Below, piece by piece: positions 2,780 through 46,026 of a DNA stretch of 64,000 nucleotides; the first letter of the stretch is position 1; each line of letters opens with the position of its first letter. The translations under genes and the position numbers were made by a program. Source of the DNA: an uncultured Chloroflexia bacterium (GTDB lineage: Bacteria > Chloroflexota > Limnocylindria > Limnocylindrales > CSP1-4); contig CAWGVH010000001.1 in assembly GCA_963825995.1 (NCBI GenBank), positions 2,903-66,902 of the forward strand, read 5' to 3'. The notes beneath the pieces were generated by a model. It saw only the letters and a program-made list of their open reading frames with translations, was not told the origin of the DNA and did no database searches.

Positions 2780-2957
2780 GCTCGGCACAACGCGCGCGAT
2801 GGGGCCCGCTGGCGGACGCGGCGGCGCGCTGCCGACCGAACTCGAGCGAGACCCGCGGTCGCGGTTCGATGGCACCCCACGCTCGTCTGGGTTCACGCGT
2901 TTCCCTCTCCAGGCCCCCACCGAAGTGTTCCACTCTAGCGTGCCACAATCTGAAGGG

Positions 2958-4124
2958 ATGGACGAAGCCACTTCACGGGCGCTCCCGCCGACCCGCAGGA
3001 TGGCGTCAGCGAAGCCCCCGTCGGTCGTCCGCGGACGCTCCGGCACCGGCCCAGCCCCGGGTCCCGGCAGGAGCGACGGGGATGAGATCTCCCGCGCTCG
3101 CTGGGCCGGCGTGGCGCTCGTCATCGCCGCGCTGCTGGGTGCCATCAGCCTGGCCATATTCAGCCCCAGTGAGGGCGCCCTCCCGTCACGGCCGGGATCC
3201 ACGGCCGTGAGCGCCTCGGCTTCTCCGCAGGCCACCACCCTGGACAACCGCCTGCCCTCGACACAGGCGGAGATCACGTCACCCAAGGCGGGCTGGATCA
3301 TCGGCGAGTGGTACGTCGACGTGGCCGTGGCTGTCCCCGAAGAGACGCTGCCCCGGCGACTGCTCTCGCTCGTCGTGCTGCGCGACGGCACAGAGGTCAA
3401 GAGCCTCGATCGGCCGGACGTCGGACGCACGGTCACCGTGCCTGACGTGCCACTGGCGGCCGGCCAGAATGTGCTGACGGCCGCGCTGCGCGGACCGGGT
3501 GGCCTCGGTCCCGCGTCGGAGCCGGTGATCGTGACCCAGGACCGTGATGCGCCGGTCCTGCGCATCACCGCTCCCAAGACTGGGCTCGAGACGATCGAGT
3601 CAAGCGTCACCGTCACCGGCACTTCGGAGCCGGGCGCATCCGTCAGCGTGGCCAACACCGCCAACCGCTGGGACACAGACATCGGCGTTGGACCCAGCGG
3701 CGACTTCGAGGTCAAGGTGCCGCTGGCCATGGGCCGCAACCGCATCGCTGTCAGCTCCACCGACGCGGCTGGCATGGAGCAGCGCGACGCCATCGCCGTC
3801 GTGCGCAAGGACGGCCGGCCCGTCATCAAGATCACCGCACCCAAGCAGGTGGCACGATCAGAGCTGCCCAAGCTGATCCGGATCGCTGTGGACGTCACCG
3901 ACGCGGATGGTGCCGAGCTGCAGGATGCGACCGTGTCGTACACGCTCGGCGGCCCCGGGTGGACGGCCCAGGACTTCGAGGATCAGACCGACGCCGATGG
4001 CCGCTCGTCCTGGGAGGTCGAGCTGGTGGCTGGGGACTCAGGCAGCGATCCCACCCTCGGGGTGGAGGTCATCGCTCCCAACGGCGAGAAGAACCAGGCC
4101 AGCCGGGTCATCGAGATCTCCTGA
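2958..4124 (+). CDS. membrane-anchored extracytoplasmic protein with Ig-like/beta-sandwich repeats
   Basis: ORF 2697..4124 trimmed to ATG 2958, which is preceded by GAAGGG. It has one N-terminal TM segment (WAGVALVIAALLGAISLAIF). After it come repeated segments of the type PVLRITAPKTG..VTVTGTSEPGASVSV / PVIKITAPK.. Confidence 0.65.
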   Translation: MDEATSRALPPTRRMASAKPPSVVRGRSGTGPAPGPGRSDGDEISRARWAGVALVIAALLGAISLAIFSPSEGALPSRPGSTAVSASASPQATTLDNRLPSTQAEITSPKAGWIIGEWYVDVAVAVPEETLPRRLLSLVVLRDGTEVKSLDRPDVGRTVTVPDVPLAAGQNVLTAALRGPGGLGPASEPVIVTQDRDAPVLRITAPKTGLETIESSVTVTGTSEPGASVSVANTANRWDTDIGVGPSGDFEVKVPLAMGRNRIAVSSTDAAGMEQRDAIAVVRKDGRPVIKITAPKQVARSELPKLIRIAVDVTDADGAELQDATVSYTLGGPGWTAQDFEDQTDADGRSSWEVELVAGDSGSDPTLGVEVIAPNGEKNQASRVIEIS

Positions 4125-4178
4125 AGGCGGCTTGACCTGCCGGGGCCCGCTCCCGGCGCGTCGGAGCTTGGCTCCCCG

Positions 4179-4667
4179 TCAGCCGTGATCCTGTCCAGAG
4201 CGGCGCCGCAGCTCGGAGACGAGGGTGCCCGCGGGGGCCACGTGCGGCGCCTCGACGAGCCGGCCCCGACGCTCGGAGCGAGCCTGGTCGACCTCGCCAT
4301 CCACAGGCTGCTGGACGGACCGGAGCGCGGACACACCAGCCGGTGCGCCGGGCGCTGGCACTGCCGTGGCCACCGTCGAGGGCGACAGCAGGGCGTCCAG
4401 GAGGCCGCCGTCGGGCCCGGAGGTCGCGCCGAGGCTCACCCAGCAGGGACGGACCTCGTGCCCCCCGAGGGGTTCGCGGGTCGGGTCGGTGGCGCAGAAG
4501 GCCAGGGCGCCCACGAACGAGGGCCGGAAGTAGTGGCAGCTGGCGCACGACACGGCTGCGCGAGAGCAGCCGCGGCAGCGCGAGGTCTCAGGCTGCAGGG
4601 TGCGGCAGTGCGGGCAACGCCAGGTCGGAGCATCGGGGATGCGTTCCACGGGGTCGAAGATCGACAT
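4179..4667 (-). CDS. hypothetical Cys-rich (zinc-ribbon-like) protein
   Basis: ORF 4179..4946 trimmed to ATG 4667, because the upstream part overlaps the kinase gene. The sequence MSIFDPVERIPDAPTWRCPHCRTLQPETSRCRGCSRAAVSCASCHYF.. has several CxxC pairs. The start codon (4667) lies 31 nt downstream of the kinase stop (4699). Confidence 0.55.
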   Translation of the reverse strand: MSIFDPVERIPDAPTWRCPHCRTLQPETSRCRGCSRAAVSCASCHYFRPSFVGALAFCATDPTREPLGGHEVRPCWVSLGATSGPDGGLLDALLSPSTVATAVPAPGAPAGVSALRSVQQPVDGEVDQARSERRGRLVEAPHVAPAGTLVSELRRRSGQDHG

Positions 4668-4698
4668 GGTCAGTCGCGTTGGGTGGCCGGCAGGCGCC

Positions 4699-6504
4699 CT
4701 ACGGGCAGGCCGTCTGCGGGTCGCCGAGGACGAGATCGACGTTGGAGCCCACGGGCACCATCGCGCCGGCTTTCGGCAATTGGTCGTGCACAAGCCAGGC
4801 GTCGCCTGGCGCGGGATCGCTCGGGATGACAGCCCCAACGAGCAGCTCGGCCTCCTCGATGTGGCCGCGCGCCTCAGCCAGGGTGAGGCACAGGAAGTCA
4901 CCCACCAGCGCCGACTGCTGCGACGGGAAGGGCGAGGGCGTGACACGCGGACGGAGCGTCGGCACTTGTCGCGGCGTGGAGGCCGGCGCGGCCGTCGCGC
5001 CCAGGCCGCGGCCAGTGGAGATCACGTAGTCCACGGCCGAGCCGCGTGTCAGCGATCCGCCGGGCCCGGGGTCCGTGGTGATGACGTAGCCCTCGGGCAA
5101 TAGGTCGTCCGCGATGTAGCGCATGCCCAGCTTCAGGCCCGCAGCTTCCAGCAGGGCGATGGCCCTGTCCTCCTTGATGCCGTGCACGTCAGGCACCACG
5201 ACGGTCTCCACCTCCGTGCCGACCGTCACCTGGATCAGAGTGCCGCTCGGAACCTGGACTCCGGGGCCGGGCAGCTGATCGATGACCAGGCCCACCTCGT
5301 TGTTCGATGCAACGTAGTCGGCCTCCACGACGAGGCCGCGTCGCCGGGCGACGTTGGCTGCGTCGCTCTCCGTGCGACCAACCAGCTGTGGGGTCCTGAC
5401 CAGGGCCACACCGCCCGTGGCTGTCGGGCTGGGCGCCGCGGCGCTGTCGCCGATGCCGCTGAAGAGGATGAAGAGCAGGATGCCGGATGCCACGATGACG
5501 AGCAGCCCGAGACCCGCGGCTGCCCAGGCCAAGGGGCCAGACCTGGAATGACCATGAGCCGCCGCTGCGGGCTGTCCCACCGACCCGGGGACGGATCCCC
5601 TGGACGCGACGCTCCCAGGGATGGGGACTGGGAGGCTGGCGCCTGGCGCGGTGCCCGCGGCAGCGAACGCCGACGCCCCTGACGGATCGGCGACGAAGCG
5701 CGTCAGGGCCATCGAGAGCTCCGACGCGGAAGGCCGCGCGGCCGGATCGATGGCCAGACACCAGCGCACGATGGCGTCCAGGGCCGGTGGCGTGTCAGCT
5801 CGCACCAGCGTCGGCGACGGCACGCTGCCGCTCAGGCGCGCCACGGCCACGGCGGCCGGCGAATCACCGGAGAATGGACGCTGGCCGGTGAGAAGCTCGT
5901 ACATCACGAGCCCCAGCGAGTAGATATCGGAGGCCGGGCTGGCGGTGTCCCCACGTGCCTGTTCCGGGCTGAAGTAGAGAACGCTGCCGAGCGTGATGCC
6001 GGTCGAGGTGACGGGTGAGCGGGCGGCAACGTGGGCGATGCCGAAATCGGCCACCTGCACCCGGCCGTCCGGCGAGAGCAGGATGTTGCTGGGCTTGATG
6101 TCGCGGTGGATAAGCCCCCGAGCATGCGCCGCCGCGAGAGCGTCGGCCACCTGCTGGCCGATGCGCGCCACGGCGGTCGGGGGCAGCGCGCCGTGCTCGC
6201 CGAGCGCCACGGAGAGGTCGCCGCCGGTCACCTGCTCCATGACGATGTAGGGTCCGGCCGGGTCGGTCCCGAAGTCGTAGACCTGCACGATATTGGGATG
6301 GCTGAGGGAGGCGGCCGCCCGTGCCTCGTGTCGGAAGCGCTCGACGAACTGGGCGTCGCTGCCGTACTCCGGGCGCAGCACCTTGACGGCCACCTCGCGC
6401 CCGAGCTTGCTGTCCGTGGCGCGGAAGATGGTGGCCATGCCACCCTGGCCCAGGACCTGGTCCAGTCGGTAGCGGCCAGCCAGGACCCGGCCGAGCTCAG
6501 CCAC
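4699..6504 (-). CDS. PknB-like Ser/Thr protein kinase with C-terminal PASTA domains
   Basis: Hanks kinase motifs are present: GQGGMATIF, AVKVL, HRDIKPSNILL, DFGIA, SPEQARG. A TM segment (AAAGLGLLVIVASGILLFILF) follows, then three PASTA-like units (VRTPQLVG.., VVVPDVHG.., VGDFLCLTLAEA..). Confidence 0.92.
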   Translation of the reverse strand: MAELGRVLAGRYRLDQVLGQGGMATIFRATDSKLGREVAVKVLRPEYGSDAQFVERFRHEARAAASLSHPNIVQVYDFGTDPAGPYIVMEQVTGGDLSVALGEHGALPPTAVARIGQQVADALAAAHARGLIHRDIKPSNILLSPDGRVQVADFGIAHVAARSPVTSTGITLGSVLYFSPEQARGDTASPASDIYSLGLVMYELLTGQRPFSGDSPAAVAVARLSGSVPSPTLVRADTPPALDAIVRWCLAIDPAARPSASELSMALTRFVADPSGASAFAAAGTAPGASLPVPIPGSVASRGSVPGSVGQPAAAAHGHSRSGPLAWAAAGLGLLVIVASGILLFILFSGIGDSAAAPSPTATGGVALVRTPQLVGRTESDAANVARRRGLVVEADYVASNNEVGLVIDQLPGPGVQVPSGTLIQVTVGTEVETVVVPDVHGIKEDRAIALLEAAGLKLGMRYIADDLLPEGYVITTDPGPGGSLTRGSAVDYVISTGRGLGATAAPASTPRQVPTLRPRVTPSPFPSQQSALVGDFLCLTLAEARGHIEEAELLVGAVIPSDPAPGDAWLVHDQLPKAGAMVPVGSNVDLVLGDPQTACP

Positions 6505-6552
6505 GCTGCCTGCCCCCCGGAAGACCTGCGGGACCGATGGGCTCGGCCGACG

Positions 6553-7431
6553 TCACCGCAGGTCGAGCCCCGCCAGGTAGGTGCGGAGCTCGGAACCGAA
6601 CTCCTCGCGATCCAAGGCCAGCTCCAGGGACGCCTTGAGCCAGCCCATCGTCGTCCCGGCGTCGTGTCGCGTGCCCTCGAACGCGTAGCAGAAGACCTCT
6701 TGCTCCTGCATGAGCGCTTCGATGGCATCTGTGAGCTGGACCTCACCGCCGGCGCCGGCCGGCGTCTGCTCGAGCTTGGCGAAGATCTTGGGCGTCAGGA
6801 CGTAGCGCCCGATGATGGCCAGGTTGCTGGGAGCCCGGTCCGGCGCAGGCTTCTCCACCACGCCCCTGATGCGGCTGAGGCGGGCATCATCGTGTTCCCA
6901 GGCGGGGTCCACGTCGACGATGCCGTAGCGATGGGTCTCGTCGTGTGGCACGGGCATGACGGCGAGCGTCGAGCCGCCCGTGAGCTGATAGGACTCCACG
7001 AGCTGGCCGATGCAGGGCCGTGGACCGGTCACGACGTCATCGGAGAGGATGACTGCAAACGGTTCGTGGCCGACGAGCTCCTTGGCCATGAGCACCGCGT
7101 GGCCCAACCCAAGCTGCTCCTTCTGGCGCACGTAGCTCACCTGCGCCATGTCGCCGATACGACGCACCCGGCGCAGCATCTCGATGTCGCCGCGCGCCTC
7201 GAGGAGCGATTCCAGCTCGAAGCTGTGGTCGAAATGATCCTCGATGGCACGCTTCTGGCTGCTCGTGACGATGATGACCTGCTCGATGCCGGCCGCCACC
7301 GCCTCCTCGACGGCGTACTGGATGACCGGCTTGTCGACCAGGGGCAGCATCTCCTTGGGCTGCGCCTTGGTGGCGGGCAGGAAGCGTGTGCCCCAGCCCG
7401 CGGCGGGAAAGACTGCCTTGCGAACGCGCAT
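6553..7431 (-). CDS. galU: UTP--glucose-1-phosphate uridylyltransferase
   Basis: ORF trimmed to ATG 7431, which has a GGAGG RBS. MRVRKAVFPAAGWGTRFLPATKAQPKEMLPLVDKPVIQY.. is the GalU signature. Confidence 0.9.
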   Translation of the reverse strand: MRVRKAVFPAAGWGTRFLPATKAQPKEMLPLVDKPVIQYAVEEAVAAGIEQVIIVTSSQKRAIEDHFDHSFELESLLEARGDIEMLRRVRRIGDMAQVSYVRQKEQLGLGHAVLMAKELVGHEPFAVILSDDVVTGPRPCIGQLVESYQLTGGSTLAVMPVPHDETHRYGIVDVDPAWEHDDARLSRIRGVVEKPAPDRAPSNLAIIGRYVLTPKIFAKLEQTPAGAGGEVQLTDAIEALMQEQEVFCYAFEGTRHDAGTTMGWLKASLELALDREEFGSELRTYLAGLDLR

Positions 7432-7578: not shown

Positions 7579-8526
7579 TCAGGCGGGCTGCGTGCTCGGC
7601 AGTGGGGCCGGCTGGCGGTGCACCTGGGCCAGCAGGCTGCCGGCTAACACGAGCGCTCCCCCAACGAGCTGCACGAAGGCCGGCCGCTCTGCGAGCAGCA
7701 TGGCAGCCAGCAGGACCGCGACGACCGGCTCGAGCAGCATGAGGATGGAGGCCCGCGTGGGACCAAGGCGGCGGTAACCGGCCAGGACCGCTGCGGTCGG
7801 GATGGCCAACCCGATGGTGGCCGCCAGGACGAGCCAGATCCAGGCGCCTTCGGCGGTGAATGGCTCGGCCAGCATCGAGGCCGCGCCCGCGAGGAGCGCG
7901 ACGCCGACGAACCCGATGGCCTGGATGACCGATAGAGCGGCGGCCGCCTGGGGGGCCGGGAGCGACGAGTAGCCACGCCCTGCGATGAGCGAGTGGATGG
8001 CCTGGGCGACTGCTGCCAACAGGCCCAGGAGCAGTCCGATGGCGGACACGTCGGCGTCCCCCTGGCCCAGCATGGGGACCACGACGACAAGCACGAGGCC
8101 GGCCGAGGCCAAGGCCAACGCCGCCACCCGCAGCGCCGTGAGCGGCTCATGGTAGACGCGCGTGGCAGCCACGGCCACGATGACCGGGTAGGTGTAGAAG
8201 CAGATGAGCACGAGCGCGATGCTGGCGTACTCGAAGCCCGTGAAGACGGCCAGGTTGATGACCACGTTGAGGATGGCCACGGTACTGATCTGGAGCCAGT
8301 GCTTCGGCGGCACGCCCGCGAAGCGCACTGAGCGGATGAGGCCCAAACCCAGGGCCAGGGCCACCGAAACGACCAGGATGAGCGCCCCGAGTAGCGCGCG
8401 CCAGGTCACGAAGGTGATGGTGGAGATGCCTGCCTCCGTCGCGAAGCGCGAGAGCACCCCGAGCGTGCCATAGCCGACCGCGGCGATGACGATCAGCGAG
8501 GCGCCGGCGGCATTCGAGCGATTCAG
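7579..8526 (-). CDS. EamA/DMT-family transporter (start codon uncertain)
   Basis: The C-terminal ~315 aa of ORF 7579..9291 is a 10-TM EamA-like sequence (ASLIVIAAVGYGTLGV...). I saw no in-frame ATG or GTG in the roughly 25 codons inspected upstream of its first TM segment. The best candidate is CTG 8526, which overlaps the upstream stop (CTGA). Confidence 0.65.
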   Translation of the reverse strand: MNRSNAAGASLIVIAAVGYGTLGVLSRFATEAGISTITFVTWRALLGALILVVSVALALGLGLIRSVRFAGVPPKHWLQISTVAILNVVINLAVFTGFEYASIALVLICFYTYPVIVAVAATRVYHEPLTALRVAALALASAGLVLVVVVPMLGQGDADVSAIGLLLGLLAAVAQAIHSLIAGRGYSSLPAPQAAAALSVIQAIGFVGVALLAGAASMLAEPFTAEGAWIWLVLAATIGLAIPTAAVLAGYRRLGPTRASILMLLEPVVAVLLAAMLLAERPAFVQLVGGALVLAGSLLAQVHRQPAPLPSTQPA

Positions 8527-32125: not shown

Positions 32126-33043
32126 ATGTACAGCATCAAGCAAGCTTCAATCCGCTCTGGCGTCAGCGTTCCGCTCATCCGGGCGTGGGAGCGCCGCTAC
32201 GGCGTGGTCAGCCCTAAGCGCACGCCATCCGGCTACCGGCTCTACGACGACGAGGCCATCGCCACCCTCGTGCGCGTGCGGGAGCTGACCGATAGCGGGT
32301 GGGGTGCCAGCGAGGCCAGTCGAGCCATCCTGGCCGGCGAGGTTGGGGTGATGCCCATCGTCCAAATGGCTCCCGTCCCCCTGGGCGACGGGTCCGCACG
32401 CACGCGTCAGGCAGACCTCAACGGGCGGTTCCTGGCAGCCGCAACGGCCATGGACATCGCCGGGACGGGCGCCGTGCTTGACGAGATCCTCGCGCAGGGA
32501 TCGTTCGAGTCCGTCGTCGACGATCTGCTCATGCCGGCCCTCGCGTCACTCGGTCTGGCCTGGACGGAGGGCCGGCTGGACGTCGCGGCGGAGCATGCCG
32601 CAAGCGCCGCTGTCCATCGCCGGCTGTCTGCACTGTACGAGGCGGCCGCGGTCATCGGTGACGTCAGCGTCGTCGTTGGCCTGCCGCCAGAGGGCCGCCA
32701 CGAGCTGGGTGCGCTCGCGTTCGCCGTGGCGCTGCGGCGCCTGGGGGTCGGCGTGCTGTACCTCGGTGCGGACGTGCCCGCCGCCAGCTGGGTGCACGTC
32801 ATCCGGCAGCATCGTGCTCGTGTCGTGGTTCTGGCTGTTGTCCAGGATTCCGACCAGCGTAGGGCGCTCGAGGTTGCAGACGCGCTGCGCGCCGCAGGCC
32901 AGAGCCTCGTCTTCGCGGTCGGTGGCCGCAGCGCCAGATGGGACGGGACGCGGGAAGCCGGTATCGTGGTGCTGCCGGACCGCATCAACGAGGCGGCCGC
33001 GGTGACGGCCAGGCTCGCAGCAGGGTCAGTCGCGGCACGGTAG
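32126..33043 (+). CDS. MerR-family transcriptional regulator with C-terminal cobalamin-binding domain (CarH/LitR-type light-responsive repressor)
   Basis: The N-terminal MerR HTH is YSIKQASIRSGVSVPLIRAWERRYGVVSPKRTPSGYRLYDDEAI. The helical-bundle motif WTEGRLDVAAEH has W-x9-EH spacing. The B12-binding Rossmann segment is VVVGLPPEGRHELGALAFAVALRRLGVGVLYLGADVP. Confidence 0.85.
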   Translation: MYSIKQASIRSGVSVPLIRAWERRYGVVSPKRTPSGYRLYDDEAIATLVRVRELTDSGWGASEASRAILAGEVGVMPIVQMAPVPLGDGSARTRQADLNGRFLAAATAMDIAGTGAVLDEILAQGSFESVVDDLLMPALASLGLAWTEGRLDVAAEHAASAAVHRRLSALYEAAAVIGDVSVVVGLPPEGRHELGALAFAVALRRLGVGVLYLGADVPAASWVHVIRQHRARVVVLAVVQDSDQRRALEVADALRAAGQSLVFAVGGRSARWDGTREAGIVVLPDRINEAAAVTARLAAGSVAAR

Positions 33044-33890: not shown

Positions 33891-35584
33891 ACGGGATGGC
33901 CGATCGCAGAAGCCCGGCCCCGTCGGTGCGGACCCGCGTGCAGGGACTCATCGAGCAGGCGCTGCGCCACGCTGTCGAATCGGGTGCCTTGCCGGAGCCA
34001 GGGCCCCGGCAGGCGCCGGAGGTGGAGGTCGAGCGGCCCGCCAATCCGGAGCACGGCGACCTGGCCACCAACCTGGCCATGAAGCTGGCTCGGCCGATGC
34101 GGCGGTCGCCACTGCAGATCGCGGAGGCGCTGGCGGCCAGCCTGCGTGCCCAGTCCACCGGTATCGCCATCAACGACGTGCAGGTGGCCGCGCCCGGCTT
34201 CCTCAACTTGCGCCTCTCGCCCACCTGGCTCGAGGCCGTGCTTGACGAGGCTCTGATGGCCGGACAGGACTTCGGGAGAGTCCGGCCGGAAACCCCGCGG
34301 CACGTGAACGTGGAGTTCGTCTCGGCCAACCCCACGGGCCCCCTGACCGTCGGTAACGCACGCGGCGCCTTCGTCGGCGATCTCCTCTGCCGCGTGCTGG
34401 AAGGCGGCGGTCATCGCGTCACCCGCGAGTACTACTTCAATGACTCGGGCCGCCAAGTCCGGGTGCTCGGCGCTTCCGTGGTCGCCCGTCGGCTCGGACA
34501 ACCGCTGCCAGAGGAGGCGTACCGTGGCAGCTACGTGGACGAGCTGGCCGCGGCCATGCCGGACCACGTCTGGGAGGCCGCCTCAGCTCCGGGCGTCGAT
34601 CGTGATGCTCGCATCGGCGACTGGGCTGGGTCCCAGATCCGCGATGGCATCGAAGCCAGCCTCGAGCGGCTCGGTGTGCACTTCGACGTCTGGAAGAGCG
34701 AGGCGAGCCTGTACGGGGAGGGCTGGGTGGAACGCGCCGTGGCCACGCTGCGCGAGGGCGGCCACGTCTTCGAGTCGGAGGGCGCCACGTGGTTTCGCTC
34801 GACGGCATTCGGCGACGACAAAGACCGCGTCATCTTCCGCTCCTCTGGTGAACCCACCTACTTCGCGTCCGACATCGGCTACGTCTCGGAGAAGTTCAGC
34901 CGCGGCTTCGACAAGCTCATCTACGTGTGGGGTGCCGACCACCACGGGACTGTGGCGCGCGTCCGCAACGCGGCGGAGGCCTTGGGCTTCGACAGGGAGG
35001 CCGTGGAGATGCTCATGGTGGCCTGGGTGCGCTTCGTGCGCGAGGGCCAGGAGATCCCCATGAGCAAGCGATCCGGTGAGTTCCTGACGCTCGACGAGCT
35101 GCTCGAAGAGATCGGGGTTGACGCCGCACGCTGGTCGTTCGCCTCCCGATCGGCAAGCTCGCCCATCGACGTGGACATCGAGCTGGCGCGCCGCCAGTCA
35201 TCCGAGAACCCCGTCTACTACGTGCAGTACGCCCACGCCAGGATCTGTTCGATCCTCTCCAAGGCGACAGCGGTGGGTCTGGCGCGAGCCACGTCGTTCC
35301 GCGGCGTGCTGGCTGACGACGACGTGGCGGCCGGACTGGCACGCGACCTGCTGCGGTTGCCCGAGGTCGTGGAGGACGCGGCGCGCTCGGAGGAGGCGCA
35401 GGGCGTGACCGCGTACGCCACGGAGTTGGCTACCACGTTCCATGCCTTCTACCGAGACCGTCGAGTCATCGACGTCGACGACCCGGCCACCTCGGCTGGC
35501 CGCCTGGCGCTCATCGACCTGGCGCGCTCGGTCATCGGCAACACCCTGGCCCTGCTGGGCATCTCGGCACCAGCGGCCATGTGA
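33887..35584 (+). CDS. argS: arginine--tRNA ligase
   Basis: Class I signatures are present: SANPTGPLTVGNARG (HIGH-like region), YYFNDSGRQV, and MSKRSG (KMSKS). Confidence 0.93.
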   Translation: MNGMADRRSPAPSVRTRVQGLIEQALRHAVESGALPEPGPRQAPEVEVERPANPEHGDLATNLAMKLARPMRRSPLQIAEALAASLRAQSTGIAINDVQVAAPGFLNLRLSPTWLEAVLDEALMAGQDFGRVRPETPRHVNVEFVSANPTGPLTVGNARGAFVGDLLCRVLEGGGHRVTREYYFNDSGRQVRVLGASVVARRLGQPLPEEAYRGSYVDELAAAMPDHVWEAASAPGVDRDARIGDWAGSQIRDGIEASLERLGVHFDVWKSEASLYGEGWVERAVATLREGGHVFESEGATWFRSTAFGDDKDRVIFRSSGEPTYFASDIGYVSEKFSRGFDKLIYVWGADHHGTVARVRNAAEALGFDREAVEMLMVAWVRFVREGQEIPMSKRSGEFLTLDELLEEIGVDAARWSFASRSASSPIDVDIELARRQSSENPVYYVQYAHARICSILSKATAVGLARATSFRGVLADDDVAAGLARDLLRLPEVVEDAARSEEAQGVTAYATELATTFHAFYRDRRVIDVDDPATSAGRLALIDLARSVIGNTLALLGISAPAAM

Positions 35585-37022
35585 AGAGGCCGGCGTGGGG
35601 CCCAGCCTCGAATGATGCGCTGACGCCGCTCCGGCGACAGGGTCGCCGCTGGGGCTAAGGAGCCAGCCCGAGGGCAGCCTTCACGTTCGCGAGCGTGTTC
35701 GGGTCGCTGGTCAGGAGCACCAGCGCTGGATCGGAGATGCCGGTCGAGACATCGGCGGCGATCACGGCATGGGCTCCTGGCAGGTCGGCGATGGCGGCAT
35801 TGGCCGCCTCCACGAACTGGCCCACGTCCTCGGGGCTGTCCCACTTCGTCTGCCAGACGATTGCCCACGTTCCGTCGGGGCCGTCGAGGCTGACGAGGCG
35901 GTCACCGCCCCAGCCGGCCGCGGCGTTGGCCTTGGGCAGCTCGATCGGAGCCTTCGGACCTTCCTGCGTGCCCGGCTGGCCATCGGCCAGCCAGACGGCG
36001 ATGCGGAGCTCGCCCATCGTCTCTCGCCAGGCCTCCACCCAGCCTGCTCCGAGCCGACCGGCGAGGTCGCCGAGGTCGATGGACGTGGGTCGCTCACCCG
36101 GGTAGAGCTTGGGATGCAGGATCTGCTCGGTCGATTCTGGTGGGCTGGCCCAGGCGTTATTGACGCTGGCCCAGCCACCGGCTTCCCGAAGCCGATCAAC
36201 GAAGAGGCGACCTTCAAGGAATGGGAGGTTGTACTCCCGCTGGAGGATCTGCGGCAGGGAGGCGAGGGTGCCGTCGTCGCCCGGTACGATGACATCTTCT
36301 ACCTTGGACTGGTTGCCTGGCGCGATGTTCGAGGCCGCCCAATCAAGCATGACGGCGGTGCCATCACCCTGCTCGAGGGCCAAGCCGGCGAGAGCCTGGT
36401 CGCCCATGGCTGGGTCACTCACGCGGACGCGGCTGATCCCGATCTGCTGGTCGACGGCCGTGCGGCCGAACTCACGCGCCGCGTTGGCCTCGTCGCCGAT
36501 GGTGAGCTTCTCGAGCGAGTTCAGGACTGTCAGGTTGCCACCTCCGGCCTGGTACGCGACCGAGAGCTCCTGGCCGTAGAGCCGGTCGAGCAGGGAGGCC
36601 AGATCGTCGCCTGGTCCGAGCAGGCCGAGGCGCTTGAGCGTCTTGTCTTCGCCGGCGACGGAGGCGGGGTCATGCACGATCTGCGAGCGAGGGCTGAGCA
36701 GTGCCTTCTGGTCAGCGTTGCCGACAGCGTCATATGGGACGGCTCCCAGCGGGAGCTCACGGACGGTCGGGATGGCCGCCGCCGCCGCATCCAGCTGGCC
36801 GCTTACGGTCGGGTTCTGGAGGGTGCCGCCGGCACCCAGTGGCTGGATGGGCGGGCCCAGCGAGACAACGTAGGCGACCGGGCTGTCCTTGATGACCACG
36901 GTGCCCGGCTGCGGATCCTGGGAGAGGACGACACCGTTCGGAACGGCTGGGTCATTGACCTCCGACCGCGCGCCCGGTGTGACCTCGGCAGCCGCAAGCG
37001 TGGCCTGGGCATCCGCCTCCGC

Positions 37023-38470
37023 GAGGCCCACGATGGCGGGCACGCTGACCTGCTTGGGACCCTTGCTGACGGTGAGGGTGACGGCCGAGCCGGTCTGCAC
37101 CTCGCTGCCCGCGGCGGGCTCGGTCTTGACGGCCTGGCCGGCGGGGACCGTGGCGTTGGTCTTCTGCTCGGTGGCGCCCACGACGAGGCCGGCGGCCGCG
37201 ATGGCGGCGTTGGCGTCGGCCTCAGCGAGGCCCTTGACCTCGGGCACGAGGGTGAGCGGCGGGCCGGAGCTGACGCTGTAGTTCACCGCGCTGCCCGCGG
37301 CGACCGTGCTGTCGGGTGGCGGATCCTGGGCGAGGACGGTGTTCTTGGGGCTGGCGTCCTCGACGACGGTCGAGGTGCCCACGCTGAGCTCGGCAGCCTC
37401 GATGGCGGCCTTGGCGTCGGGCTGCAGGAGGCCCACGATGGCGGGCACGCTGACCTGCTTGGGACCCTTGCTGACGGTGAGGGTGACGGCCGAGCCGGTC
37501 TGCACCTCGCTGCCCGCGGCGGGCTCGGTCTTGACGGCCTGGCCGGCGGGGACCGTGGCGTTGGTCTTCTGCTCGGTGGCGCCCACGACGAGGCCGGCGG
37601 CCGCGATGGCGGCGTTGGCGTCGGCCTCAGCGAGGCCCTTGACCTCGGGCACGAGGGTGAGCGGCGGGCCGGAGCTGACGCTGTAGTTCACCGCGCTGCC
37701 CGCGGCGACCGTGCTGTCGGGTGGCGGATCCTGGGCGAGGACGGTGTTCTTGGGGCTGGCGTCCTCGACGACGGTCGAGGTGCCCACGCTGAGCTCGGCA
37801 GCCTCGATGGCGGCCTTGGCGTCGGGCTGCAGGAGGCCCACGATGGCGGGCACGCTGACCTGCTTGGGACCCTTGCTGACGGTGAGGGTGACGGCCGAGC
37901 CGGTCTGCACCTCGCTGCCCGCGGCGGGCTCGGTCTTGACGGCCTGGCCGGCGGGGACCGTGGCGTTGGTCTTCTGCTCGGTGGCGCCCACGACGAGGCC
38001 GGCGGCCGCGATGGCGGCGTTGGCGTCGGCCTCAGCGAGGCCCTTGACCTCGGGCACGAGGGTGAGCGGCGGGCCGGAGCTGACGCTGTAGTTCACCGCG
38101 CTGCCCGCGGCGACCGTGCTGTCGGGTGGCGGATCCTGGGCGAGGACGGTGTTCTTGGGGCTGGCGTCCTCGACGACGGTCGAGGTGCCCACGCTGAGCT
38201 CGGCAGCCTCGATGGCGGCCTTGGCGTCGGGCTGCAGGAGGCCCACGATGGCGGGCACGCTGACCTGCTTGGGACCCTTGCTGACGGTGAGGGTGACGGC
38301 CGAGCCGGTCTGCACCTCGCTGCCCGCGGCGGGCTCGGTCTTGACGGCCTGGCCGGCGGGGACCGTGGCGTTGGTCTTCTGCTCGGTGGCGCCCACGACG
38401 AGGCCGGCGGCCGCGATGGCGGCGTTGGCGTCGGCCTCAGCGAGGCCCTTGACCTCGGGCACGAGGGTGA
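37023..38470. repeat. tandem repeat, 405-bp unit x about 3.6 (each unit encodes two different PASTA domains)
   Basis: Antisense ORFs at 37306, 37711 and 38116 (the first two 126 aa, the third 195 aa) share an identical N-terminal sequence of about 115 aa. The protein segment TLVPEVKGLAEADANAAI...SSGPPL repeats exactly. Confidence 0.9.
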
Positions 38471-38675
38471 CGCTTGTGCCCGCCGAGACGTACAGCGCGA
38501 CCTCCGAGCCGAGCGAGATCTCTTCATCGGCAGCCGGAACGGTCTTGATGGCGTCGCCCACAGCGACGTCTTCATTGCTCTGCTCGATGGTTTCTCCGAC
38601 GACCAGCCCGGCGTCCTCGATGGCCGCGACCGCATCAGCCTCTGAGAGGTCACGCACCGCGGGGACGGCCACGTT

Positions 38676-41600
38676 CGGCTCGACGCCCAGGCTCACGAGG
38701 TAGCTGACGGTGCTCCCCACGGCCACGCTGCTGCCGGGCTCGGGATCCTGGCTCACGACGTCACCGGCGGGCACGTCGGCGCTGTAGGCCTCGCTGGGGG
38801 CGCCGCTGAGGCGGGCGTCGGCGAGGGCCTGCTCGGCCTCGGAGGCGGGCGCGCTCGTGAGGTCGGGCACCGTGACCTGCTCGACGCCCAGGCTCACGAG
38901 GTAGCTGACGGTGCTCCCCACGGCCACGCTGCTGCCGGGCTCGGGATCCTGGCTCACGACGTCACCGGCGGGCACGTCGGCGCTGTAGGCCTCGCTGGGG
39001 GCGCCGCTGAGGCGGGCGTCGGCGAGGGCCTGCTCGGCCTCGGAGGCGGGCGCGCTCGTGAGGTCGGGCACCGTGACCTGCTCGACGCCCAGGCTCACGA
39101 GGTAGCTGACGGTGCTCCCCACGGCCACGCTGCTGCCGGGCTCGGGATCCTGGCTCACGACGTCACCGGCGGGCACGTCGGCGCTGTAGGCCTCGCTGGG
39201 GGCGCCGCTGAGGCGGGCGTCGGCGAGGGCCTGCTCGGCCTCGGAGGCGGGCGCGCTCGTGAGGTCGGGCACCGTGACCTGCTCGACGCCCAGGCTCACG
39301 AGGTAGCTGACGGTGCTCCCCACGGCCACGCTGCTGCCGGGCTCGGGATCCTGGCTCACGACGTCACCGGCGGGCACGTCGGCGCTGTAGGCCTCGCTGG
39401 GGGCGCCGCTGAGGCGGGCGTCGGCGAGGGCCTGCTCGGCCTCGGAGGCGGGCGCGCTCGTGAGGTCGGGCACCGTGACCTGCTCGACGCCCAGGCTCAC
39501 GAGGTAGCTGACGGTGCTCCCCACGGCCACGCTGCTGCCGGGCTCGGGATCCTGGCTCACGACGTCACCGGCGGGCACGTCGGCGCTGTAGGCCTCGCTG
39601 GGGGCGCCGCTGAGGCGGGCGTCGGCGAGGGCCTGCTCGGCCTCGGAGGCGGGCGCGCTCGTGAGGTCGGGCACCGTGACCTGCTCGACGCCCAGGCTCA
39701 CGAGGTAGCTGACGGTGCTCCCCACGGCCACGCTGCTGCCGGGCTCGGGATCCTGGCTCACGACGTCACCGGCGGGCACGTCGGCGCTGTAGGCCTCGCT
39801 GGGGGCGCCGCTGAGGCGGGCGTCGGCGAGGGCCTGCTCGGCCTCGGAGGCGGGCGCGCTCGTGAGGTCGGGCACCGTGACCTGCTCGACGCCCAGGCTC
39901 ACGAGGTAGCTGACGGTGCTCCCCACGGCCACGCTGCTGCCGGGCTCGGGATCCTGGCTCACGACGTCACCGGCGGGCACGTCGGCGCTGTAGGCCTCGC
40001 TGGGGGCGCCGCTGAGGCGGGCGTCGGCGAGGGCCTGCTCGGCCTCGGAGGCGGGCGCGCTCGTGAGGTCGGGCACCGTGACCTGCTCGACGCCCAGGCT
40101 CACGAGGTAGCTGACGGTGCTCCCCACGGCCACGCTGCTGCCGGGCTCGGGATCCTGGCTCACGACGTCACCGGCGGGCACGTCGGCGCTGTAGGCCTCG
40201 CTGGGGGCGCCGCTGAGGCGGGCGTCGGCGAGGGCCTGCTCGGCCTCGGAGGCGGGCGCGCTCGTGAGGTCGGGCACCGTGACCTGCTCGACGCCCAGGC
40301 TCACGAGGTAGCTGACGGTGCTCCCCACGGCCACGCTGCTGCCGGGCTCGGGATCCTGGCTCACGACGTCACCGGCGGGCACGTCGGCGCTGTAGGCCTC
40401 GCTGGGGGCGCCGCTGAGGCGGGCGTCGGCGAGGGCCTGCTCGGCCTCGGAGGCGGGCGCGCTCGTGAGGTCGGGCACCGTGACCTGCTCGACGCCCAGG
40501 CTCACGAGGTAGCTGACGGTGCTCCCCACGGCCACGCTGCTGCCGGGCTCGGGATCCTGGCTCACGACGTCACCGGCGGGCACGTCGGCGCTGTAGGCCT
40601 CGCTGGGGGCGCCGCTGAGGCGGGCGTCGGCGAGGGCCTGCTCGGCCTCGGAGGCGGGCGCGCTCGTGAGGTCGGGCACCGTGACCTGCTCGACGCCCAG
40701 GCTCACGAGGTAGCTGACGGTGCTCCCCACGGCCACGCTGCTGCCGGGCTCGGGATCCTGGCTCACGACGTCACCGGCGGGCACGTCGGCGCTGTAGGCC
40801 TCGCTGGGGGCGCCGCTGAGGCGGGCGTCGGCGAGGGCCTGCTCGGCCTCGGAGGCGGGCGCGCTCGTGAGGTCGGGCACCGTGACCTGCTCGACGCCCA
40901 GGCTCACGAGGTAGCTGACGGTGCTCCCCACGGCCACGCTGCTGCCGGGCTCGGGATCCTGGCTCACGACGTCACCGGCGGGCACGTCGGCGCTGTAGGC
41001 CTCGCTGGGGGCGCCGCTGAGGCGGGCGTCGGCGAGGGCCTGCTCGGCCTCGGAGGCGGGCGCGCTCGTGAGGTCGGGCACCGTGACCTGCTCGACGCCC
41101 AGGCTCACGAGGTAGCTGACGGTGCTCCCCACGGCCACGCTGCTGCCGGGCTCGGGATCCTGGCTCACGACGTCACCGGCGGGCACGTCGGCGCTGTAGG
41201 CCTCGCTGGGGGCGCCGCTGAGGCGGGCGTCGGCGAGGGCCTGCTCGGCCTCGGAGGCGGGCGCGCTCGTGAGGTCGGGCACCGTGACCTGCTCGACGCC
41301 CAGGCTCACGAGGTAGCTGACGGTGCTCCCCACGGCCACGCTGCTGCCGGGCTCGGGATCCTGGCTCACGACGTCACCGGCGGGCACGTCGGCGCTGTAG
41401 GCCTCGCTGGGGGCGCCGCTGAGGCGGGCGTCGGCGAGGGCCTGCTCGGCCTCGGAGGCGGGCGCGCTCGTGAGGTCGGGCACCGTGACCTGCTCGACGC
41501 CCAGGCTCACGAGGTAGCTGACGGTGCTCCCCACGGCCACGCTGCTGCCGGGCTCGGGATCCTGGCTCACGACGTCACCGGCGGGCACGTCGGCGCTGTA

Positions 41601-42493
41601 GGCCTCGCTGGGGGCGCCGCTGAGGCGGGCGTCGGCGAGGGCCTGCTCGGCCTCGGAGGCGGGCGCGCTCGTGAGGTCGGGCACCGTGACCTGCTCGACG
41701 CCCAGGCTCACGAGGTAGCTGACGGTGCTCCCCACGGCCACGCTGCTGCCGGGCTCGGGATCCTGGCTCACGACGTCACCGGCGGGCACGTCGGCGCTGT
41801 AGGCCTCGCTGGGGGCGCCGCTGAGGCGGGCGTCGGCGAGGGCCTGCTCGGCCTCGGAGGCGGGCGCGCTCGTGAGGTCGGGCACCGTGACCTGCTCGAC
41901 GCCCAGGCTCACGAGGTAGCTGACGGTGCTCCCCACGGCCACGCTGCTGCCGGGCTCGGGATCCTGGCTCACGACGTCACCGGCGGGCACGTCGGCGCTG
42001 TAGGCCTCGCTGGGGGCGCCGCTGAGGCGGGCGTCGGCGAGGGCCTGCTCGGCCTCGGAGGCGGGCGCGCTCGTGAGGTCGGGCACCGTGACCTGCTCGA
42101 CGCCCAGGCTCACGAGGTAGCTGACGGTGCTCCCCACGGCCACGCTGCTGCCGGGCTCGGATCCTGGCTCACGACGTCACCGGCGGGCACGTCGGCGCTG
42201 TAGGCCTCGCTGGGGGCGCCGCTGAGGCGGGCGTCGGCGAGGGCCTGCTCGGCCTCGGAGGCGGGCGCGCTCGTGAGGTCGGGCACCGTGACCTGCTCGA
42301 CGCCCAGGCTCACGAGGTAGCTGACGGTGCTCCCCACGGCCACGCTGCTGCCGGGCTCGGGATCCTGGCTCACGACGTCACCGGCGGGCACGTCGGCGCT
42401 GTAGGCCTCGCTGGGGGCGCCGCTGAGGCGGGCGTCGGCGAGGGCCTGCTCGGCCTCGGAGGCGGGCGCGCTCGTGAGGTCGGGCACCGTGAC
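38676..42493. repeat. tandem repeat, 201-bp unit x 19 (one 67-aa PASTA domain per unit), apparently identical copies apart from one 1-nt deletion and the last codon
   Basis: The unit starts CTCGACGCCCAGGCTCACGAGG and ends ..GGGCACCGTGACCTG. Successive unit starts at 38880, 39081 and 39282 are 201 bp apart. The protein unit is VTVPDLTSAPASEAEQALADARLSGAPSEAYSADVPAGDVVSQDPEPGSSVAVGSTVSYLVSLGVEQ. Confidence 0.92.
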
Positions 42494-42694
42494 CTGCTCG
42501 GGTGCGATGGCGACATCGACGTCCACCCTGGACCCGCCCAGCACCATCGTGCCCGCTGCCGGGTCCTGATCGAGGATGGTGTTGGGCTCCACCTCGGTGG
42601 TCTCCAGAGAGGTGGTCCCGAGAACTAGACCCAGGGAATCCGCTTCCGTCTGGGCGTCCGCCAGCATCATGCCCTCGAATGTCGGCACGGCGAC

Positions 42695-43510
42695 CAGCGC
42701 GGGGCCCGAGGAGACGACGTAGGCGACGGCCGAGAGGCGGGCCACCTCGGTGGCGGCCACGGGGTTCGAGCTGATGACGTTGCCCGCCACGATGCTGGCG
42801 TCGCTGGCTTGGGTGCGGGTGCCGGCCGCCAGGCCGGCGTCGGCGAGGGCCTTGAGAGCCTCGCTCTCGGGCAGGTCGATGATGTCGGGCACGGCGACCA
42901 GCGCGGGGCCCGAGGAGACGACGTAGGCGACGGCCGAGAGGCGGGCCACCTCGGTGGCGGCCACGGGGTTCGAGCTGATGACGTTGCCCGCCACGATGCT
43001 GGCGTCGCTGGCTTGGGTGCGGGTGCCGGCCGCCAGGCCGGCGTCGGCGAGGGCCTTGAGAGCCTCGCTCTCGGGCAGGTCGATGATGTCGGGCACGGCG
43101 ACCAGCGCGGGGCCCGAGGAGACGACGTAGGCGACGGCCGAGAGGCGGGCCACCTCGGTGGCGGCCACGGGGTTCGAGCTGATGACGTTGCCCGCCACGA
43201 TGCTGGCGTCGCTGGCTTGGGTGCGGGTGCCGGCCGCCAGGCCGGCGTCGGCGAGGGCCTTGAGAGCCTCGCTCTCGGGCAGGTCGATGATGTCGGGCAC
43301 GGCGACCAGCGCGGGGCCCGAGGAGACGACGTAGGCGACGGCCGAGAGGCGGGCCACCTCGGTGGCGGCCACGGGGTTCGAGCTGATGACGTTGCCCGCC
43401 ACGATGCTGGCGTCGCTGGCTTGGGTGCGGGTGCCGGCCGCCAGGCCGGCGTCGGCGAGGGCCTTGAGAGCCTCGCTCTCGGGCAGGTCGATGATGTCGG
43501 GCACGGCGAC
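42695..43510. repeat. tandem repeat, 204-bp unit x 4 (one 68-aa PASTA domain per unit)
   Basis: The protein unit VAVPDIIDLPESEALKALADAGLAAGTRTQASDASIVAGNVISSNPVAATEVARLSAVAYVVSSGPAL occurs four times exactly. GCAGGTCGAT recurs at 42871 and 43075. Confidence 0.9.
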
Positions 43511-44475
43511 GGTTGGCGTCGCCACAGCGACGGACAGCTCGATGGTGGACCCGACAGGCACGGCTTGGCCGGGAGGCGGTTGCTGACCCAGCACCGTGCC
43601 GGGCTCCACGTCGTCGTTCTCGACCGAGACGACCCGAACGACGAGCCCGTAATCATCGGCCGTGAGCTCGGCCTCCTCGAGGCTGAGGCCCTGGAAGTTG
43701 GGCGTGTCGACCACCGCTTCAGCCGACGGAGTCGCGCTGGGGACCTCGGTCACGACCGGCGAGGGTGACAGGGTCACGTCCGGCGAGCCGGAGTCGAAGG
43801 GGCGGAAGAGGAGGATGACGATGGCGAGCGCCACGATGAAGGCGCCCACGAGGATGCCCCCCACGAGCAGCACGGGCGTGCCCTCGTCTGGCGGCTCGCC
43901 GTCCATGCCGGGCGGTGGCAGAGGCGGGCCGTCAGGCGGTTCGATCGTCACCTCTGGCCTGGCGGCCAGCGCAGCCAGGGCGGCCTCAGTGGCTTCCGGG
44001 TCGGGGGCCACGGGCGTCGTCGTCCAGGCTGCGACGCCAGTCGCGGCGGCCATGCCGGCGCCTCCATCAGCAGCCAGGCCGGCCTCGTCCGCCAGATCGT
44101 CGGCAGGGTCCGGCCCAGCGGCCACGGCGTCCGGGTCCGCGGCCCCAGCCTCGAACTCTCCGGCGTCCTCGTCAGATCCGACGACAGCCTCCGACGGGTC
44201 CTCGTTATCTGACAGAGGGGGTCCGGCATCTGGGCCGGACGGCTGACCGGCGACTGCCTTGACCTCCGTCGGGTCAGACGCAGCTGCAAGTGGATCAGTG
44301 GAGGCAGTGGGGTCGCCGGGGTCCGGCCGCTGATCAGTCATGGCAGGCGGACCTTAGGTGACTTCGGCTCTGCGTGCGAGCACCCTGCGTGAGTCGATTG
44401 GGTCGTTCCCGGCACAAGTGTCCGAATTCTTCATCGTCCGCCGCTCCTCGCTTCACGTGCCCACAGGCCGACGGA

Positions 44476-45819
44476 TCAGGGCAAGACACCAAGGGCCGTT
44501 TCGACAGTATCGAGCGTCGCGTCGCTGTCGGCCAGCAGGACAAGTACTGGAGAGGATAGTCCTCCGCTCAGGTCGGCATTCGAGACTGCCTGGGCCCCGG
44601 ACAGATCTCGCATGGCATCGCGGGCGGCTTCCTTGAACTCCCTGGCGTCAGCCTGGCTGTCCCAGTCGGTCTGCCAGACGACGGCCCAGGTACCTTCCGG
44701 CCCATCAAGGCTCACCAAGCGGTCACCACCCCAACCGGCGGCCGCGTCAGCGCGCGGCAGGCGGGGCGGCAGGACCGGGAAGAGCGACCGCGCCTTCTGA
44801 CCATCCGCCACCCACACGCCGATCTGCATCTCGCCCAGGGTCTGCTCGTAGGAGGTCGTCCAGTCGGGGCCAAGCATTGCTTCCACATCCGGCAGTGCGA
44901 CCTCGATCGGGGTCTCGTCGGGGTAGAGCTCAGGGTGCATGATCTGCTCGGTCGAGACCGGCTGTGCCTGCCAGGCCTCATCCACGGCCGGCCAGTCGCC
45001 ACGGCCCCGGATGGCATTCACGAAGGCGAAGCCGTCGATGTAGGGGAACTCCAACTGCCGGCGCATCAGGACCGGCATCTCTCGCAGCACCTTGCTGTCC
45101 TGCCTCGTGAGCGCGCCCGCGGACACGGCCAGCAGGTCGGCCAGCTTGAGTTGGCGGGCCGCCCAGTCGTACATGATGGCGGTGGCATCGCCCTCGACCA
45201 ACGCCTGCTGAGCGAGGATGGCGTCCGACTGGTCCAGCTGCCTGATGCGGCGGGCCTCCAGGTCGTATGCCGCGTCCTGGAGGGCGTGCTCATACTCGTG
45301 GGCGACGACGACCAATTCGAGCGCCCCGATCTTGCGAGCCGGGCCGATGAGCGAGAACGTATCCGACCTCGGGTCGTAGTACGCCAGCACCTGGGCGTCG
45401 TACAGCGAGAGGGTCAGCTCACCCAGGTCGTCGTCCGGATCGATCAGCCCGAGGCGTGTGAGGGCAGCATCCTCGGCCGCGACGTCGGCGTCCGTGTATT
45501 CCTCGCGGAAGAGAGCTTCCAGTTCAGCCGTGAAGGTGCCGGCGTCGATGACGCGGTACTTGACGCCGTCGGCCGGCGGGAGGCCGCGGATGGGAGGCAC
45601 GGAGTCGATGACCGCGTTCACCCGCCTGACCATCCTGGCGTTGAAGCCATCCGGCAGCGACGCGGCCTCGCCCGAGGAGGCCGGCGTGGACGCATCCTGT
45701 GCTGAGGCGAGGCCTGACGGGGCGAGCGCAAGCAGGGCGAGGGACAGGGCCAGTGCGGCGGGGCGGGCGAGCCACGACCGGCGCAGCGCCGACGCGGAGC
45801 GACTGACGATGGCTGTCAT
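44476..45819 (-). CDS. secreted HExxH (zinc metallopeptidase-like) protein, paralog of the C-terminal domain of the giant PASTA protein
   Basis: Signal peptide MTAIVSRSASALRRSWLARPAALALSLALLALAPSGLASA (start ATG 45819 or 45828). The HExxH motif is intact (VVAHEYEHALQD). The C-terminus AAGWGGDRLVSLDGPEGTWAVVWQTDWDS matches the giant protein's AAGWGGDRLVSLDGPDGTWAIVWQTKWDS. Confidence 0.8.
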   Translation of the reverse strand: MTAIVSRSASALRRSWLARPAALALSLALLALAPSGLASAQDASTPASSGEAASLPDGFNARMVRRVNAVIDSVPPIRGLPPADGVKYRVIDAGTFTAELEALFREEYTDADVAAEDAALTRLGLIDPDDDLGELTLSLYDAQVLAYYDPRSDTFSLIGPARKIGALELVVVAHEYEHALQDAAYDLEARRIRQLDQSDAILAQQALVEGDATAIMYDWAARQLKLADLLAVSAGALTRQDSKVLREMPVLMRRQLEFPYIDGFAFVNAIRGRGDWPAVDEAWQAQPVSTEQIMHPELYPDETPIEVALPDVEAMLGPDWTTSYEQTLGEMQIGVWVADGQKARSLFPVLPPRLPRADAAAGWGGDRLVSLDGPEGTWAVVWQTDWDSQADAREFKEAARDAMRDLSGAQAVSNADLSGGLSSPVLVLLADSDATLDTVETALGVLP

Positions 45820-46026
45820 GTCGCGCATTCTGACAGCGTTGGCGCGAGGCTCCTTGGGGACCGCCCCCGGCACCCCCAGGGGGTCTGTGCGAGGTCACCC
45901 GTGTGGGCGCCGACAGCCGGTGTGCGTTTCTTCATCGTTCGAGGGCTGGCGCCTTCATCGTCGAGGGCTACTCTTTCGCTCACGGAACCGCGAAGCATCC
46001 CTTCACAGTTCCCTCTCCCTCCCTCT

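Follow-up and report, generated by a model that had tools for sequence, protein, structure and literature searches.

We analyzed a stretch of 64,000 nucleotides from an uncultured Chloroflexia bacterium (GTDB order Limnocylindrales; contig CAWGVH010000001.1), hereafter called the window and numbered from its first letter. A giant gene on its reverse strand (35655..44341) encodes a protein with 34 PASTA domains, 30 of which are carried by three tandem arrays. Array A (42695..43510, reverse strand) consists of 4 identical units of 204 bp with one PASTA domain each. Array B (38676..42493, reverse strand) contains 19 units of 201 bp, again with one PASTA domain each. Array C/D (37023..38470, reverse strand) is made of 3.6 identical units of 405 bp that encode two different PASTA domains, types C and D, giving seven domains in total. 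Each unit therefore corresponds exactly to one domain (A, B) or to two (C/D). The arrays were located using Tandem Repeats Finder and by direct slicing at the coordinates of a preliminary description of this DNA, which had recognized all three; both approaches recovered them. The repeat finder returned 37023..38470 with period 405 (3.6 copies, 100% matches), 38678..42500 with period 201 (19.0 copies, 99% matches) and 42679..43510 with period 204 (4.1 copies, 99% matches). As the same description had noted, all periods are multiples of 3. We found no other large tandem repeats in the 64-kb window.

Slicing revealed 0 differences between the copies of array A (4 x 204 bp) and 0 between those of array C/D (3.6 x 405 bp). 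In array B, alignment of the copies showed 2 differences in all, a 1-bp deletion in one copy and a G/T difference at the outermost base of an edge copy. The second B copy, in gene orientation, is one base short, with GG at window positions 42159..42160 where the other aligned or sliced copies have GGG (41958-41960, for example). Because of this deletion, array B spans 3,818 nt rather than 3,819, the frame is shifted and the assembled gene is split into two overlapping open reading frames (ORFs), 42110..44341 (743 amino acids) and 35655..42143 (2,162 amino acids). Insertion of one base restores a single ORF of 2,895 codons. The nucleotide identity of copies that had been proposed thus holds for A and C/D and, but for these two differences, for B, and the statement that every copy translates identically within one gene fails for the second B copy. 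Apart from this overlooked frameshift the original observation is real.

The order of elements from the N-terminus is an acidic tail, a transmembrane helix, U1, four A units, U2, 19 B units, U3, three C-D pairs followed by one C, U4, and a C-terminal domain; U1 to U4 denote four unique PASTA domains. A hidden Markov model (HMM) built from the units agrees with the earlier count of 30 arrayed domains out of 34. All eight unit types match Pfam PASTA (PF03793). A construct in which U1, A, U2, B, U3, C and D are each represented once yielded 7 PASTA stretches and 258 bits, compared with a cut-off of 23.2, and U4 alone gave 32 bits. U1 (43511..43711) and U2 (42494..42694), which separates arrays A and B, were assigned with Pfam and the HMM, U3 (38472..38672) with the HMM and its identity to C, and U4 (36849..37049) with Pfam and its identity to D; all four lie on the reverse strand. 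The unit types had been described as strongly diverged from each other, and their amino acid identity is indeed only 22-52%. The closest pairs are U3 with C and U4 with D, at 52% each, as expected of diverged edge units of the C/D array.

The N-terminal region (43874..44341, reverse strand) is acidic, of low complexity, about 156 residues long and presumed to be cytoplasmic; it was delimited on the translation and has motifs conserved in two related loci, L009 and L010. A single predicted transmembrane helix, VLLVGGILVGAFIVALAIVILLF, follows (43805..43873, reverse strand). It was read from the translation and is conserved in L009, L010 and the protein P0123. No kinase or other Pfam or NCBIfam domain was found in the N-terminal region of about 156 residues, which rules out a PASTA Ser/Thr kinase of the PknB/PrkC/StkP type. 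A PBP2x-type penicillin-binding protein was also ruled out, since the tested segments have no transpeptidase match in Pfam. The presumed cytoplasmic tail contains segments that are conserved in L009, L010 and the related locus L002, MTDQRPDPGDPT... and AAWTTTPVAPDPEATEAALAALAA.PE, which may form a docking motif. Long antisense ORFs also overlie the arrays, including one of 958 amino acids at 35769-38645 and others on the forward strand. In L002 (8778-9836), gene callers place three 82-residue antisense genes, spaced by 405 bp, in a frameshifted C/D array. High GC content and repeats probably account for these antisense ORFs, which would then be spurious.

The preliminary description had suggested that related genomes be compared for differences in copy number. 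We found such differences in ten syntenic loci that span the arrays, all on Limnocylindria-like contigs of Nanopore-only metagenome assemblies. Six of the ten match metagenome-assembled genomes of the Microflora Danica long-read study, assembled with Flye and one Medaka round (PMC12313526). Arrays A, B and C/D are found in the same order and in the same gene in all ten relatives. Copy numbers, given as A / B / C/D, are 4 / 19 / 3.6 in the window, 3.1 / 16 / 5.6 in L002, 4.1 / 13.9 / 3.6 in L091, 5.1 / 17 / 3.6 in L092, 3.1 / 17 / 3.6 in L093, 6.2 / 21 / 2.6 in L013, 4.1 / 17 / 2.6 in L010, 22.1 / 2.4 / 3.6 in L009, 9 / 15 / 4.5 in L004 and 8.4 / 12 / 3.4 in L006. In L001, an error-rich sequence where the A and B arrays merge and U2 cannot be delimited, they are about 6 / about 9 / 3.6. 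Between species, copy number thus ranges from 3.1 to 22 for A, from 2.4 to 21 for B and from 2.6 to 5.6 for C/D. L001 is the closest long-read relative, with flanks about 92% identical, and L091, L092 and L093 are other species. Where measured, the C-terminal domains of the relatives are 59-93% identical to that of the window. Two relatives are in a single frame throughout, L009 with an open frame of 3,226 codons and 38 PASTA domains, and L010 with 2,621 codons and 30 PASTA domains. The idea that variable copy number makes ectodomain length evolvable is supported by these between-species counts.

PASTA totals, calculated by span, range from 24 to 38, or from 29 to 38 without L001, and vary much less than the single arrays. 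A permutation test on array sums, which ignores phylogeny, gave p = 0.011 with L009 and p = 0.12 without it. This is a hint of length homeostasis by compensation between arrays, and it depends on L009 alone. In that genome the array sizes are inverted, A having 22 copies (2669-7184) and B 2.4 copies at 85% identity (7700-8175), and the total is still 38.

Comparison of the units within and between genomes reveals how the arrays evolve. Within a genome, unit identity is 98-100% in most arrays (L002, L004, L010). Compared with the window unit of the same array, identity falls to 0.79-0.95 and is uniform over all copies of a given genome. For B it is about 86.5% in L002 (16/16 units) and about 80% in L004 (15/15 units); for A it is 88% in L002 and 79% in L004; for C/D it is about 90% in L002 and about 95% in L001. 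Every B copy of L002, L004, L010, L092 and L093 has a period of 198 bp, as against 201 bp in the window. Paralogous units within a genome are therefore far more alike than orthologous units between genomes, as concerted evolution demands. Small or weakly homogenised arrays, such as B in L009 (85% identity), C/D in L006 (70%) and C/D in L005 (79%), are visibly decaying or diverging.

Within this one gene, base composition and substitution rates set the arrayed units apart from the unique PASTA domains. GC content at third codon positions (GC3) in the window is 0.967 for the distinct arrayed units, compared with 0.833 for the four unique PASTA domains (Fisher p = 1.6e-7). The contrast recurs in L002, L010 and L009, with arrayed units ranging from 0.95 to 0.97. 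GC3 is 0.79-0.87 in the C-terminal domain, the N-terminal region and three neighboring genes, argS, FTCD and the one encoding a paralogue of the C-terminal domain. Synonymous (dS) and nonsynonymous (dN) divergence between the window and L002 was calculated with the Nei-Gojobori method. In the arrays dS is 0.18-0.20 and dN/dS 0.5-0.8; in the unique PASTA domains the values are 0.51 and 0.26, and in the flanks 0.62-0.81 and 0.16-0.31. dN is alike in all regions, about 0.10-0.17, and dS is about 3-fold lower in the arrays than in the unique PASTA domains. It is thus the units in arrays, and not PASTA domains as such, that combine a nearly saturated GC3 with little synonymous divergence. We read this pattern as the mark left by long-term recombination, in line with GC-biased gene conversion, which has been suggested to act in bacteria (PMC4450053).

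Taken together, these observations are very probably explained by three separate arrays that form a PASTA stalk of variable length and are kept uniform by recombination. As a repeat unit is a whole domain, or two, a change of register would keep the reading frame. Homologous recombination between misaligned copies, through unequal crossing-over, gene conversion or slippage, would then repeatedly expand, contract and homogenise the arrays. The four unique PASTA domains would act as boundaries that stop exchange between arrays, each of which would evolve in concert independently of the others. Copies would then be almost perfectly identical inside one genome but divergent from those of other genomes, and the stalk would lengthen or shorten in the course of evolution; its length may itself be under selection. 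The comparison supports concerted evolution by continuing unequal recombination or gene conversion rather than a one-off amplification.

Structural predictions are consistent with a stalk. The AlphaFold model of four B units has a pLDDT of 92.9 and a pTM of 0.59. It superposes on the linear three-PASTA ectodomain of Staphylococcus aureus PrkC, with TM-scores of 0.66 over 213 columns (PDB 3py9) and 0.70 (PDB 3m9g), and matches solved PASTA structures at E values down to 5e-18. From this model, the 34 head-to-tail PASTA domains are predicted to form an extended extracellular stalk, with a length that we roughly estimate at 100 nm or more. The N-terminal transmembrane helix would anchor the stalk and the C-terminal DUF8575-like domain would be carried at its distal tip.

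What the 1-bp deletion in array B means has to be considered first. It is most likely a long-read consensus error in the repeat, and possibly a real, very recent frameshift instead. In the latter case the gene could be a true pseudogene, or be switched off, with the protein truncated after 743 residues. The deletion is present in the assembled sequence, and the flanking genes compared with relatives are full-length and show no frameshift. However, loss of one base from a short homopolymer inside a repeat is typical of residual long-read consensus errors, the rest of the 8.7 kb is in frame and perfectly homogenised, and the orthologues are intact. Phase variation at this site was also thought unlikely, the run of 3 bases being too short for its classical form. 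We therefore regard a pseudogene as improbable. Because L009 and L010 are in a single frame throughout, the gene family appears to be functional, and the frameshift of the window is unlikely to be a trait of the family.

A different question is which property of the repeats may be under selection. In kinases and penicillin-binding proteins, PASTA domains are generally regarded as modules that bind muropeptides or peptidoglycan. The repeats could serve multivalent binding, holding peptidoglycan or lipid II with avidity along the wall, and copy number would tune binding strength, not reach. The raised dN/dS of the arrays (0.5-1.0, compared with about 0.25 in the unique PASTA domains) can be taken on this side as weak protein-level constraint on the arrayed units. 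The same values nevertheless argue against a conserved ligand site in each unit. Moreover, the predicted four-domain arrangement is linear and PrkC-like, and a distinct conserved domain is found at the far end in every relative. Selection for binding strength is therefore, in our view, unlikely.

The preliminary description had left a choice between recent independent amplifications and continuing homogenisation. One-off, very recent amplifications restricted to the genome of the window would fit the lack of substitutions among the copies within any of its arrays. But arrays at the same three positions in all 11 genomes would need an independent origin in each lineage, which is unparsimonious, and a GC3 of 0.97 as against 0.83 requires many substitutions fixed across the arrays over a long time. 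Continuing turnover and homogenisation accounts for these shared sites far more parsimoniously, and we consider the one-off scenario very unlikely. Also very unlikely is an assembly artefact, in which over-expanded or artificially uniform arrays would hide a real gene whose repeats are far fewer or more heterogeneous. In its favor, perfect repeats of 0.8-3.8 kb are difficult for assemblers, tandem repeats are a known source of assembly error (PMC6868369), short-read contigs of the same lineage collapse the arrays and indels cluster in the arrays of several Nanopore relatives. Against it, the same three arrays, with 24-38 PASTA domains, are seen in eleven independent assemblies (the window among them), the 19 B copies of the window fall within the range of 2-21, the frames of L009 and L010 stay intact across 22 and 17 copies, and the deletion in only one of 19 copies argues that the copies do not come from an unrolled graph loop.

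That single deletion also indicates that the window copies were called individually from spanning reads. The behavior of short reads is illustrated by a contig from JGI metagenome 3300056969 (Ga0566178_0033209, our L003), which is 99.6% identical to the window over 34126-38776. Its start lies 99 nt into a B unit, and exactly 3 x 405 bp of the C/D array are missing from it. This gap is a classic repeat-loop collapse; it is uninformative on copy number and does not point to a shorter allele. Other JGI metagenome contigs from short reads end just upstream of the C-terminal domain.

Several points weigh against a recombining surface stalk. The giant gene is frameshifted as assembled. All the relatives that resolve the arrays are Nanopore-only assemblies, and the clustering of frame changes and indels inside the arrays of several of them suggests weaker polishing in repeats. 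The copy numbers and the perfection of the copies in the window come from one assembly, and polishing can erase rare differences. We found no conspecific long-read genome (flank nucleotide identity of 92% at most), so that variation is seen between species only. The high GC3 could stem from codon selection amplified over many copies instead of biased conversion. Finally, the surface location and the rod geometry are predictions.

The C-terminal domain (35658..36854, reverse strand) comprises 399 residues and resembles DUF8575 (PF26686). Directly upstream of the PASTA gene lies a stand-alone DUF8575 paralogue (44476..45873, reverse strand) that seems to have a signal peptide and in which a HEYEH motif is intact. 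Both were assigned from homologue matches and alignments. PF26686 is precomputed on P0001, a protein 100% identical over the whole 399-residue query, and on all 120 listed homologues. The NCBIfam model NF038145 (Hvo_1808 family) matches the C-terminal domain with 87 bits (E 1.6e-24) and the upstream paralogue with 157.7 bits (E 5.5e-46), both below its cut-off of 200 bits. On the basis of these matches, the two are distant homologs of the Hvo_1808 family and not equivalogs. A literature search on DUF8575 found nothing, and HVO_1808 appears in the literature only as a haloarchaeal lipobox protein.

Among 57 aligned DUF8575 members, 39 carry the motif HE[YH]xH. Most of the 39 are stand-alone proteins about 440 residues long, although the PASTA-bearing P0049 is also one of them. 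In the window and in 17 other sequences, most of them with PASTA domains or fragments, the first histidine is replaced by arginine, mostly as REFGR; the window has REFGR in place of HExxH. The second histidine is likewise lost, mostly to arginine, in all 18 Arg-bearing sequences, including that of the window. Judging by the HExxH motif, the family is a putative zinc metallopeptidase. The DUF8575 paralogue and the PASTA gene are paired on the same strand in the relatives too, which suggests a pseudo-enzyme/enzyme pair. Our working guess is a tethered, catalytically dead binding module acting with a secreted HExxH enzyme.

The AlphaFold model of the C-terminal domain has a pLDDT of 95.5 and a pTM of 0.93. 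Search of the PDB with this model gave no match at E < 0.3, and a profile search returned only 3cmn, with an E value of 0.22. DUF8575 may thus represent a fold without a solved representative.

These elements can be combined into a larger proposal, which we put forward as a rather improbable conjecture. The GC3 of about 0.97 and the low dS confined to the arrayed units would be within-gene evidence of bacterial GC-biased gene conversion. At the same time, compensation between arrays (22 A and 2 B copies in L009) would hold the stalk near 30-38 PASTA domains. A catalytically dead DUF8575 head would thereby be kept at a fixed distance from the membrane and work there with the secreted HExxH DUF8575 enzyme encoded immediately upstream.

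Around the pair the chromosome is unremarkable, with argS and genes for a metallo-beta-lactamase-fold protein, a MerR/B12-binding regulator, DUF4397 proteins and a formiminotransferase. The regulator gene (32126-33043, forward strand) encodes a MerR-type helix-turn-helix fused to B12-binding domains; it adjoins argS and the metallo-beta-lactamase-fold gene, an arrangement conserved in relatives. A scan of the 3' intergenic region for terminators and promoters found nothing. The source names of the homologues are Chloroflexota and Candidatus Limnocylindrales/Limnocylindria.

The closest known class is that of the Periscope Proteins, which include SasG, Rib, Sgo_0707, Aap, Esp and CdrA. In these proteins, intragenic recombination alters the number of near-identical domains that build a rod-like stalk (Whelan et al. 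2021, PMC8201768). The protein described here shares with them tandem folded domains with very high DNA identity (100% in A and C/D, and in B apart from one deletion and one edge base). Its repeat number differs between related genomes, in our case between species only, and its stalk, which carries a different domain at the distal end, is predicted to be rod-like. It differs in that the stalk domain is PASTA, which is mentioned neither in the text of the Periscope paper nor in the supplements examined (PMC8201768). One gene here contains three separately homogenised arrays with unique PASTA domains between them. The topology, with an N-terminal transmembrane anchor and a C-terminal head, is the reverse of that of cell-wall-anchored proteins with an N-terminal head. 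The host organism is an uncultured environmental Chloroflexota and not a host-associated pathogen.

With the PASTA kinases (PknB, PrkC, StkP) and PBP2x, the protein has in common the domain family and, by prediction, a cytoplasmic N-terminus, one transmembrane helix and a linear head-to-tail series of extracellular PASTA domains. It differs from them by the absence of a kinase or transpeptidase domain, by its C-terminal DUF8575 and by its nucleotide-identical repeats; it has 34 PASTA domains, compared with three or four in the matched solved kinase ectodomains. Its likeness to DUF8575/Hvo_1808 proteins is in the homology of the C-terminal 399 residues and of the upstream neighbor. The differences there are the two scores below the NCBIfam cut-off and the REFGR of the PASTA-fused copy versus the HE[YH]xH of stand-alone members.

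We also searched a library of 1.84 billion representative proteins with a profile. None of the best 150 matches has more than 34 PASTA stretches. Metagenome proteins P0121, P0129 and P0125 resemble the window protein in having 16-27 near-identical adjacent PASTA units, but P0129 and P0125 carry different non-PASTA parts. If P0134 is added, the number of near-identical units extends from about 8 to 27; P0134 also has a different non-PASTA sequence, and the tail of P0121 is apparently frameshifted. A literature search combining PASTA with repeat or tandem found no paper on PASTA arrays. PASTA repeat stalks thus recur in environmental bacteria, where, to judge from these sequences, they seem widespread and undescribed.

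The locus is therefore a clean new example, in a soil or freshwater Chloroflexota, of a known type of variable-length surface protein, and not a new kind. It extends the repeat-stalk principle to PASTA domains, to a reversed anchor and head topology and to free-living, uncultured Chloroflexota. With 34 PASTA domains, and 30 and 38 in the frame-intact relatives, these proteins stand at the top of the range seen in the 1.84-billion-protein library. Short-read assemblies do not show such genes, since their contigs break or collapse at the arrays. Three homogenised arrays and four unique copies of one fold within a single gene provide an unusually clean internal control for studying how arrays evolve in concert, how recombination affects GC3 and dS, and how selection acts on stalk length. 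The locus also draws attention to a conserved pair of uncharacterised proteins, a putative enzyme of the DUF8575 family with HExxH and a PASTA-tethered DUF8575 partner without it.

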